24,000 nt of DNA, taken from the NCBI GenBank assembly GCA_963664655.2, contig OY761554.1, positions 157,901 to 181,900 on the forward strand, written 5' to 3'. Source of the stretch: an uncultured Desulfospira sp. Its GTDB lineage: Bacteria; Desulfobacterota; Desulfobacteria; Desulfobacterales; Desulfobacteraceae. The notes under the pieces are model-generated. The model saw only the letters and a list, made by a program, of their open reading frames with translations. It ran no database searches and was not told where the DNA came from. This document shows, in pieces, positions 8,351-11,798 of the stretch (positions are counted from its first letter, which is position 1; each line of letters begins with the position of its first letter). Made by a program: the position numbers and the translations under genes.

Positions 8351-8925
8351 ATTTTCACCTTGAAAAACGATCCATAACCGGCGGGGTGGATGACTGCGGG
8401 GATACCGGCCTGATCCGGGTATACAGCAACCGCTGTTTCATGGCTCTGCTGGATGCCCTGGGCAATGGGAAAGGGGCCTGTGGAACAGCCGGGCAGGCTG
8501 AAGCCTATTTATCAAGCCGTTACACCCATGACCTGATTGAACTGCTCAACGGCCTGCATGAAAACCTTAAGGGGACCCGTGGCGTTGTGGCGGCCTTCTG
8601 CCGGCTGAACCTGGATTCCGGCATATTAAATTATACCGGCATGGGAAACATCAGCATGAAAATTCTGGGCCCGCGGTACAGGCGCCTGGTCACTCAGGAC
8701 GGTGTTATCGGCTATCGGATGCGGTTTTTGAAGCAACAGCAGACACAACTGTATCCCGGTGATATCCTGCTGATGAGTTCTGACGGGATAAAGGAGCATT
8801 TTGATCCGGCGCACCATCCAACCCTTTTTAAAGGCAATGCAAAAGATATCTGCCTTTCGGTGATGGGCAAACTCAAAAAGGCCCATGGAGATGCGTCCTG
8901 CATTGTTTTGAGGTATGGCATATGA
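8323..8925 (+). CDS. rsbX: RsbX-like PP2C/SpoIIE-family protein phosphatase
   Basis: 200-aa ORF overlapping the rsbT-like end. An alternative ATG at 8341 gives a 10-nt overlap. Motifs [20 protein letters not shown] and GDASCIV are colinear with B. subtilis RsbX (CGDS, ADGLGSG, HTDG, DDLT) as I recall it. Confidence 0.75.
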
Positions 8926-11798
8926 TTACCCTGGGCAAATTTGACATCACGGCTGAAAATCTGAAAACCGTCGGGAAAAGAGTGTATCAGGCATTAAGCC
9001 ACCTGGGATTTACCGAAGTAGGTATGTCCCGGCTGTCAACGGTTTTCATCGAACTTTTGCGTTCCTGTCTGGTCCGGGAGGCGGCGGCCAAGGTATCTGT
9101 CGGCCTGGTCAGTGACATGGCGGGCAATGGACTGGGGCTGTCCATTTCATCCGGGGCCGCCATTTCACTGCCTGAATATGCGGTTCGTTTTTTTGACCAT
9201 ATAAAAATGGATGAGAGCCCTGAGCCGTTGTGGCTGTTTTCCGGGATCAAATATTTTCCCAAACCGGATCATTACCCGGATGAGGCTGCCGTAATATCGG
9301 CCAGGGAAACCCTTTCAAGGCTTTCAAGACAAGAGCTGCTCACAGACCTGATGATAAAAAACAAGACCCTTGAAACGTCGGCCAAAGAGACCAAAGCGGC
9401 CACGGAAATCAGTGAAAAAGCCTCTGAAGAACTCAAGGTACAGGTCAATGAACTGGCCCGTGCCAGAAGGGCAATGCTCAATATCATGGACGATCTGGAC
9501 GAAGCCAAACAAGAGGCCATATCCGCCACCCAGGCGAAAAGTGACTTTCTGGCCAATATGAGCCACGAAATCCGGACCCCCATGAATGCCATCATCGGGA
9601 TGAACCATCTGCTGATGAAAACCCGTCTGGATGAAAAACAAAGGGATTATGTCCAGAAAGTAAACGTATCTGCCCAGAACCTTCTGGGGATCATCAACGA
9701 TATTCTTGATTTTTCAAAGATTGAGGCGGGTAAGCTGAACATTGAATCCATCCCCTTTAATCTGAACGAGGTCCTGGCCAACCTGTCCAATCTGGTCGGC
9801 ATGAAAGCACAGGAAAAGGGAATTGAACTGCTGTTCTTCATGGACCAGGAAGTTCCGGTTTTATTAATTGGCGATCCCTTGCGGCTGGGCCAGATTCTCT
9901 TAAACCTGACCAATAACGCAGTCAAGTTTACGGAAAAAGGAGAGATCATCGTCAAAATTGAACAGGTCGAAGAAACCCCCGCAGACGTCCTCATAAAATT
10001 TTCTGTAAAAGATACCGGCATCGGCCTGACCCGTGAGCAGTCCGACAAGTTGTTTTGTGCGTTTCATCAGGCAGATACGTCCACCACTCGCCAGTACGGC
10101 GGTACCGGCCTGGGGTTGAGCATCAGCAAACAATTGTCTGAAATGATGGGCGGGGCCATTGGGGTGGACAGTGAATTTGGCCGGGGAAGTGAGTTTTATT
10201 TTACGGCCCGGCTGAAAAAGCAGGCTGAAACAAGCCAGCCGTCTCAATCCCCGGGAACAACGCTTCCCGATTTTCTTCAGGAGCTTGAGATACTCGTTAT
10301 TGATGACAATAAGACATCCCGGGAAGTCCTTGGATATTACCTGAAAACCTTTTCTTCCCATATTGAAAAGGCGTTTTCCGGGCAGGAGGCCCTGGATAAA
10401 GTTCTGGCCCGGAAGAAATCCGGAAAAAAACCCTTTGACCTGATATTTATGGACTGGCAGATGCCGGAAATGGACGGCATAGAAGCCTCACGCCAGATTC
10501 TGGCCAACAACGATCTTGTAGAAAAAATAAAAATCATCATGGTCACGGCTTACGGCAGGGAAGACGTCATACAACAGGCCCAGGATATGGGGCTTAGTGG
10601 TTTCCTGATCAAACCGTTAACCAAATCCGTGGTCTATGATGCCGTGCTTGACGCATTTGGCCAAAGCTCCCGGAAAACCGCTGATTTTCAAAAATCTAAA
10701 GTCCTGCCCGAGGGGTTTGACCGAATCCGGGGCGCTAAAATTCTGCTGGTGGAGGACAATGAGATTAATCAGCAGGTGGCCAGGGAGATGCTCTCCTACG
10801 AAGGCCTTGTGGTGGAAATCGCCGGGAACGGGGAAAAGGCTGTCAGATATATTACTGAAAACTCCCGGCAGGACCCGGTTGATCTGATCCTGATGGATCT
10901 TCAGATGCCGGTGATGGGAGGCATTGAAGCCACCGTGAAAATACGGGACTGGGAGGCCGGGACTCAGACAAAGCGCTTGCCCATTCTGGCCATGACCGCA
11001 GACGCCATGACCGGGGTCCGTGAAAAAGTCATGGATGCCGGCATGAACGGATATCTGACCAAACCCATAGAGCCGGCCAAATTGTTTGAGGCACTGGTCA
11101 GGTGGATACCCCCCGGGGAAAGACCCCTGCCAGAAGGCTGGAAAAAGCAGGCTGATTCAGAGGACGAAATAAAACAAACGGAAATTCTGATTCCTGATCT
11201 GCCGGGGATTGACACGGTACTGGGGATGTCCAGGGTCAGCGCAAACCAGCGGGTGTATGTGGAAATTCTGGATCGGTTTTACGAACAGTTTCATTCATTC
11301 AGATCTTCTTTTAAAAAGCTTTTGGACCAGGAAGACCACGAAACGGCCTTAAGGTCGGCCCATACCCTGAAAGGGGTGGCGGGGAATATTGGTGCCAGGA
11401 CGATTTCCGAGGCCGCCCGGGATCTTGAAACGGCTGTCCGGGATGGGAACAGCCGGGATATAACCGGGACTCTTGATGTGCTGGAGCCTGAACTTTCCAG
11501 GGTAATCGACGGGCTGGTTCAAAGCCGGGTGCTGGATCAGATTAAAACCCGTGACGACCCGCCGGTCCATGGCCCCGTGGATAACGAAAAGGTATGTGCC
11601 CTGCTGGCGGAACTTTACGGTGCTGCCTCCAAGCAGGCTCCCGGCCCTACTAAAAAGATTCTGGCACGGCTTGACAAACTGGCCATTCCCGAATCAAACC
11701 GGCCGGCCTTTAAAAAACTGCACGGCTTGATCAAAACTTATAAATTTGAAGATGCACTGCCGTTAATTGATGGCTTAAAAAAAGAAATGAAAGGATAA
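8922..11798 (+). CDS. Hybrid sensor histidine kinase: novel N-terminal domain, coiled coil, HisKA, HATPase_c, REC, REC, Hpt
   Basis: 958-aa ORF whose start overlaps the rsbX-like stop (ATGA at 8922-8925). H-box is [14 protein letters not shown] (H215, 9564-9566). N/G boxes are [18 protein letters not shown] and [12 protein letters not shown]1 has D511 (10452-10454, [12 protein letters not shown]). REC2 has D659 (10896-10898, [12 protein letters not shown]). Hpt is [14 protein letters not shown] (H814, 11361-11363). No TM segment. Confidence 0.93.

Follow-up and report, generated by a model that had tools for sequence, protein, structure and literature searches.

An RsbT-like domain without ATP-site motifs at the N terminus of a stressosome-linked hybrid histidine kinase: a candidate receiver of the stressosome signal

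Introduction

Stressosomes occur in many phyla, and the step from the kinase RsbT to the output enzyme is understood just where the output carries an RsbU_N domain. RsbT activates RsbU by binding to its N-terminal dimerisation domain and the adjoining linker, with rigidification of a coiled coil, and a like logic has been proposed for kinases and cyclases (histidine kinase (HK) and GGDEF outputs) carrying RsbU_N (Baral et al. 2025, PMC12143880). Most outputs of Gram-negative-type stressosomes, VvD1 of Vibrio included, have no detectable RsbU_N, and the link from the stressosome to such outputs was called unknown by Heinz et al. 2022 (PMC9237108). Here we analyse a locus of this kind in an uncultured Desulfospira sp.; the window is a stretch of 24,000 nucleotides (nt) of contig OY761554.1 (assembly GCA_963664655.2, positions 157,901 to 181,900). 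The subject is residues 1-130 of its cytosolic hybrid HK (958 amino acids, 8922..11798, + strand), where we identified a domain homologous to RsbT that is predicted to have lost its ATP site (residues 1-118, 8922..9275, + strand; AlphaFold2 models, Foldseek, and hhalign against the RsbT family).

The Vibrio-type stressosome layout is known from two studies (Heinz et al. 2022, PMC9237108; Cutugno et al. 2023, PMC10014275). The locus has the composition that defines this operon type, rsbRSTX plus a two-component output on one strand: six tightly packed same-strand genes encode an RsbR-like protein, RsbS, RsbT, RsbX, the hybrid kinase and a response regulator of receiver (REC) and HD-GYP domains (Pfam, spacing of open reading frames). 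The operon type is thus already known; the domain family at the head of the kinase appears to be unpublished, and the literature that we found on stressosomes with pseudokinase or RsbT-like domains holds no description of it.

Homology of the kinase N terminus to RsbT

The original prediction, made from the letters of the window, took the N terminus of the kinase for a degenerate copy of the neighbouring RsbT on the basis of a gapless hand alignment of HK residues 23-81 with RsbT residues 27-85. Both quoted peptides are indeed present, the one in the HK from residue 23 (nt 8988) on and the one in RsbT from residue 27 on. In the proposed register (HK n paired with RsbT n+4) 8 of 59 positions are identical, and the BLOSUM62 score of 16 was also attained on some diagonal by 78 of 1000 shuffles of the HK N terminus; a BLASTP comparison of the domain with RsbT did not report this diagonal. 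Since shuffles match the score and BLASTP misses the diagonal, the lone pairwise likeness to RsbT is within chance.

Family profiles gave a clear signal. When the domain family was compared by hhalign with a profile of 15 RsbT proteins drawn from the same loci, the probability was 88.6% (E 2.7e-6) with 35 domain sequences, 92.1% (E 6e-7) with 101 sequences and 93.6% (E 2e-7) for columns 1-120 alone. The profile alignment runs from HK 12-110 to RsbT 16-133 over ~100 columns and recovers the hand-made register exactly up to residue 77; past this residue the alignment is not gapless. A gap of 18 residues follows HK 77 and spans RsbT 82-99, after which HK 78-110 pairs with RsbT 100-133. Control profiles (RsbS, RsbX, HisKA, both REC domains and Hpt) reached at most 1.5% and a reversed profile 0.2%, while 200 column-shuffled and 200 block-shuffled profiles gave maximal scores of 20.8 and 24.2, respectively, versus 43.5 for the real one. 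Descent of the domain by duplication from the CA domain of the same kinase was rejected, with an hhalign probability of 3.2% versus 92% for RsbT.

Independent support for homology is given by profile-to-sequence matches. A search of 401 genomes of the phylum with the domain profile recovered full-length family members and, over model positions 6-78, small proteins of 128-163 amino acids with E-values from 1e-8 to 1e-5. These small proteins are true kinases of the RsbT type: the motifs SELARN, DxGPGI and GxGLGL are intact in them, and Pfam HATPase_c_2 confirms the assignment. The same search found kinases with an N-terminal RsbT-like domain still visible to Pfam HATPase_c_2 (L049, L050 and L054); in L049 and L054 its motifs seem intact, in L050 partly decayed, and these kinases look like possible intermediates between free RsbT and the lid-less domain. 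The phylum sample also contains other stressosome-type loci (L048-L057; e.g. L051:660-3213 and L054:1-1752) in which rsbR, rsbS and rsbT are followed by a second small RsbT paralogue, rsbX and then a kinase of this kind, with an N-terminal RsbT-like domain that HATPase_c_2 matches.

The domain hidden Markov model (positions 37-101) also makes recurrent weak secondary matches (domain E 0.01-10) to the CA domains of the same proteins. They fall on the region from N-box to G1 box, residues ~314-390 of family kinases, and are a faint echo of common GHKL ancestry.

Predicted fold

AlphaFold2 models of the domain had a pLDDT of 82.6 with an alignment of 7 sequences and 84.2 with 78 sequences (79-84 over all five models). 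Both models have the same elements: strand b1 (residues 2-9), helices a1 (14-28) and a2 (32-50), strands b2 (56-65) and b3 (68-77), a short helix (85-90) and strands b4 (93-97) and b5 (104-111), that is, beta-alpha-alpha-beta-beta-alpha-beta-beta, followed by a long helix from residue 121. This is the order of the GHKL core, b-a-a-b-b-(lid)-a-b-b. When the PDB was searched with Foldseek, the 15 best matches of either model were all Bacillus subtilis RsbW, UsfX (the PDB-entry label for an anti-sigma-F kinase) or SpoIIAB, with probability 0.92-1.0, target-normalised TM score up to 0.77 and root mean square deviation ~3-4 A; from rank 16 on the probability was below 0.6, and the best matches there were CA domains of histidine kinases.

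The profiles and the models support the assignment of the domain to the GHKL superfamily, as a Bergerat-type alpha/beta core of the RsbT-RsbW-SpoIIAB branch. The original prediction had offered an RsbU_N-like helical bundle as the fold that would count against it; with five predicted strands and no match to PF08673 such a bundle was excluded.

Loss of the ATP site

Conservation was counted by columns over the family set of 101 sequences. The N-box remnant E44-L-L-R-S48 (9051..9065, + strand) was located by the hhalign register. Its E44, at the position of RsbT E48 and SpoIIAB E46, is kept as Glu in 94% of the family, and S48 stands at the position of RsbT N52, so the claim that the N-box Asn is replaced holds; this position is occupied by Leu, Pro, Thr or Ser across the family and by Asn in none of its members. 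The G1 box was said to be substituted. There is indeed no DxGxG in the HK domain, but the box is deleted together with the ATP lid: the deletion point lies between S77 and G78 (9150..9155, + strand; hhalign), where RsbT has the 18 extra residues with both elements. Neither DxGxG nor the Gly-rich G2 motif (GxxGxG) was found anywhere in the family profile, and the missing G2 box, too, is as originally described. The neighbouring RsbT retains every ATP-site motif.

Because the N-box Asn, G1 box, lid and G2 box are lost, the domain is predicted by its motifs to have neither ATP binding nor kinase activity; it should be a catalytically dead, lid-less copy of RsbT. The idea of an RsbT/RsbW-type module dead in ATP binding is supported along three lines: by the match between the family profiles, by the predicted structures and their fold search, and by the real RsbT kinases that the domain profile hit directly.

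The domain family and its conserved positions

An exhaustive phmmer search with residues 1-140 over 1.84 billion representatives returned 18 real relatives besides the query and one spurious repeat protein, and in all 18 the match begins at residue 1 or close by. Another 11 members came from a six-frame search of 401 genomes from the same order; with those added from metagenome-assembled genomes (MAGs), metagenomes and protein databases the family set comprises 101 distinct N-terminal sequences. Searches for related loci with narrow alignments yielded 6 and 2 loci. Word-indexed protein searches limited to the domain found the query or its close kin only, the scores of a protein search with a mixed alignment reflected the kinase as a whole rather than the domain alone, tblastn of the domain against plasmids gave no match, and phmmer against PDB sequences gave chance matches only.

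No model of Pfam (2025; E<=1) or NCBIfam (2026) covers HK residues 1-159. Even at E<=10 Pfam had no match for the domain in 12 family members, HATPase_c_2 and PF08673 included.

The start of the domain is conserved (M1, L4 and G5), as are K20 (92%), G29 (90%), R37 (81%), F90-F91-D92, P113-D114 and P119. The last three belong to a conserved loop, FPKPDHYPD (9255..9281, + strand), which in the AlphaFold2 secondary structure connects the domain to the linker helix. In three members (P0032, P0035 and P0037) the match to the domain profile is split in two by ~20-40 extra residues between b5 and the linker helix, suggestive of an insertion or a partial duplication at the junction. In one Desulfamplus MAG (L018:6001-6480) the domain gene reads normally for ~56 residues and then has many stop codons; the break could be a disruption, an insertion or an assembly break.

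Genomic context and fusions

Wherever a locus has enough flanking sequence, rsbS, rsbT and rsbX precede the domain gene, which begins where rsbX ends. The order rsbS-rsbT-rsbX-domain was found in 11 of 11 loci of the order sample, in seven MAG or metagenome loci (L013-L017, L019 and the disrupted L018), in three loci from an exact protein look-up (L023-L025, one of them an Oleidesulfovibrio genome) and in 5 of 5 full-length matches of the phylum sample. The domain is found solely on proteins encoded right after rsbR-rsbS-rsbT-rsbX.

These proteins are plain HisKA-HATPase kinases, hybrid HKs, PAS-HKs, SpoIIE/PP2C phosphatases and PAS-PP2C phosphatases. Fused to such different outputs, the domain is a swappable N-terminal module. 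No RsbU_N (PF08673) match was found anywhere in the genome of the window, while the B. subtilis positive control matched. The original suggestion that the domain takes the place of RsbU_N as N-terminal module of the output enzyme is therefore supported by context: the domain always begins at residue 1 of the protein encoded after rsbX, a helical linker joins it to the outputs and the genome is free of RsbU_N. RsbT is the only small HATPase_c_2 protein of this genome, which is 96% complete, and the pseudo-GHKL domain occurs in it once; a second weak match to the domain (L022, E 0.006) was rejected as a chance match to an M20 peptidase.

Linker and other possible inputs

A long helical linker (residues 121-204, 9282..9533, + strand; AlphaFold2 helix 121-149 and conservation) leads from the domain into HisKA. 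Near its start lies a family-wide motif, (P)SRxELLxDLxxKNxxL (9324-9371, + strand), with L139 kept in 92% and N147 in 91% of the family. A second conserved motif of 12 residues, of ARRAMLNIM type, follows at 9462-9497 (+ strand). Of 99 domain-bearing sequences 56 have this motif, PP2C-fused ones among them, as do 11 of 39 kinases that lack the domain, which makes it a separate module.

Upstream of rsbR the window encodes an output-less sensor of 1198 amino acids (3072-6668) with SBP_bac_3, HAMP, three PAS and GAF domains. Its C-terminal 70 residues (6459-6668) form a conserved tail containing GREERMIDLKQEVNQLL. A gene with this tail stops shortly upstream of rsbR in the window and in six other loci (L014, L015, L017, L018, L019 and L025) and is missing from this place in three (L013, L023 and L024).

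As originally noted, the kinase has no transmembrane segment (top 19-residue Kyte-Doolittle mean 1.32); its residues 1-159 match no known domain. To call the N-terminal domain its only candidate input was too strong, because two more motifs are conserved in the linker and a sensor with no output of its own is encoded upstream.

Genes of the locus

The RsbR-like co-antagonist has PAS and STAS domains (6712..7521) and RsbS is a single STAS domain (7537..7902); these and the other genes below lie on the + strand and were assigned by Pfam. RsbT (7925..8350; HATPase_c and HATPase_c_2) is an intact GHKL Ser kinase with E48, N52, DNGPGI and GKGLGLGL, as seen also in an alignment to the SpoIIAB PDB sequence. 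It is followed by the RsbX-type PP2C phosphatase (8323..8925; SpoIIE). The longest rsbX frame shares 28 nt with the end of rsbT (8323-8350); the true start may be a later codon, since the RsbX match of relatives starts at residue 8-9 of this frame. The rsbX stop and the HK start overlap (ATGA; sequence 8916-8930).

The catalytic part of the kinase (9534..11798) consists of HisKA (residues 205-270), HATPase_c (317-432), two REC domains and Hpt (781-861). The response regulator with HD-GYP (REC and HD_5, 11803..12891) is the likely phosphorelay target of the hybrid kinase; the same gene also comes after the domain-bearing kinase in five other loci (L013, L014, L019, L023 and L024).

Discussion

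The fold and homology, the loss of ATP motifs, the strict synteny and the modular fusions are results of this analysis; the partner and the linker mechanism are inferred. In the most economical reading, the dead RsbT-like domain and the conserved start of the linker together form the signal receiver: the domain would be the docking input for the stressosome signal and the linker would relay it to the kinase core. On stress, RsbT would phosphorylate RsbS and RsbR and leave the stressosome; free RsbT would then dock on the domain and the conserved start of the linker helix. Docking could take the form of a GHKL-GHKL pair as in RsbW or SpoIIAB, which is plausible because both are homodimers. The docked RsbT would fix the coiled coil of the linker and thereby switch the DHp/CA kinase core, which would feed the REC domains, Hpt and the REC-HD-GYP regulator so that levels of cyclic di-GMP (c-di-GMP) change. 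RsbX would reset the stressosome. We put the probability of this account as a whole at roughly 60%. The domain is probably how such stressosomes hand the signal to the output enzyme.

Three observations weigh against this reading. An interaction of VvRsbT with VvD1 was not detected in Vibrio (Heinz et al. 2022, PMC9237108); if VvD1 carries the domain, this result speaks weakly against docking of RsbT. The structural matches have modest Foldseek E-values of ~2e-3 and a query-normalised TM score of ~0.5, the latter partly because a linker helix of 30 residues lies in the model, and the models are themselves predictions. Finally, the upstream sensor and the second linker motif suggest another input route; given these two elements, the kinase may combine two inputs.

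One unlikely alternative, though the best placed, has the dead domain bind the STAS domains of unphosphorylated RsbS and RsbR and so park the kinase on the stressosome. There the kinase would, on this doubtful account, hold STAS sites beside live RsbT or in competition with it, and phosphorylation of the core by live RsbT would free the effector directly, with no handover of RsbT. The best-established partner of RsbT, from which the domain derives, is the RsbS/RsbR STAS core. Such tethering would account for the fact that active RsbT and RsbX are always kept beside the domain, and also for the absent interaction of VvRsbT with VvD1 in Vibrio (PMC9237108). What tells against it is the deletion. 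In the solved complexes of SpoIIAB with SpoIIAA and of RsbW with RsbV, the STAS partner covers the ATP site and the lid; docking of a STAS protein on the domain is weakened because the lid, which makes much of this contact, is lost. If the tethered arrangement is true, it would be a partner switch whose effector bears its own pseudo-kinase anchor.

Less probable still is a domain that merely dimerises, serves as a scaffold or takes up a small ligand in what is left of the pocket, with the signal coming either by phosphorylation of the kinase by RsbT, an idea of Heinz et al. (PMC9237108), or through the upstream sensor and the linker motifs. GHKL Ser kinases are generally known as homodimers, and the further conserved linker motifs and the recurrence of the tail-bearing sensor gene before rsbR are in line with this possibility. 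However, such strict linkage to rsbT and rsbX would be needless for a pure dimeriser; three loci lack the tail-bearing sensor, yet rsbS, rsbT and rsbX are adjacent in all loci examined; and the ARRAMLNIM-type motif is patchy among domain-bearing sequences and turns up in kinases without the domain. That the likeness to RsbT is due to chance and the fold is unrelated, or that the domain is a duplicated CA domain, is very improbable: the pairwise alignment is by itself not significant and Pfam has no match, but the profile-profile score lies far over the shuffled controls, the five predicted strands and the failure of PF08673 to match argue against a helical bundle, and the hhalign result as well as the low Foldseek probability of HK CA structures argue against a CA duplicate.

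The dead RsbT copy at the head of the outputs, with free RsbT as its proposed partner, is a concrete candidate for the missing link between RsbT and output. It adds a bacterial example of a pseudo-kinase domain with a proposed role as docking module, and the unannotated domain family could enter domain databases.

Comparison with known systems

RsbT itself, including the copy encoded at 7925-8350, shares with the domain a homologous alpha/beta core with the same order of elements and the same operon; both have the GF(D) loop and the (T)R..T..SEL helix with the N-box Glu. Unlike RsbT, the domain lacks the N-box Asn, G1 box, lid (the 18-residue deletion) and G2 box, and it is not a free protein but the N terminus of an output enzyme, followed by a conserved helical linker.

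The best structural matches, RsbW, UsfX and SpoIIAB (PDB 6M36/6M37, 8IH8, 8JZT, 1TH8, 1TID, 1TIL and 1L0O), are active, ATP-binding, free dimers that bind sigma factors and STAS antagonists, whereas the domain is lid-less and fused to a kinase.

RsbU_N (PF08673; PMC12143880, PMC9237108) is the RsbT-docking domain of B. subtilis RsbU and of certain HK and GGDEF outputs. Like the domain, it is N-terminal on a protein encoded after stressosome genes, and a helical linker connects it to the PP2C or HK effector, in the case of RsbU_N also to GGDEF. The folds are unrelated, an alpha/beta sandwich in the domain versus a four-helix bundle in RsbU_N; by analogy the two are likely to do the same job.

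The locus as a whole resembles that of Vibrio vulnificus, rsbR-S-T-X with VvD1 and VvD2 (PMC9237108, PMC10014275), in its six-gene layout, cytosolic hybrid kinase and c-di-GMP-related regulator, and the two are alike in having neither a sigma factor nor RsbU_N. They differ in the sensor of RsbR, a PAS domain here and a globin in Vibrio vulnificus.

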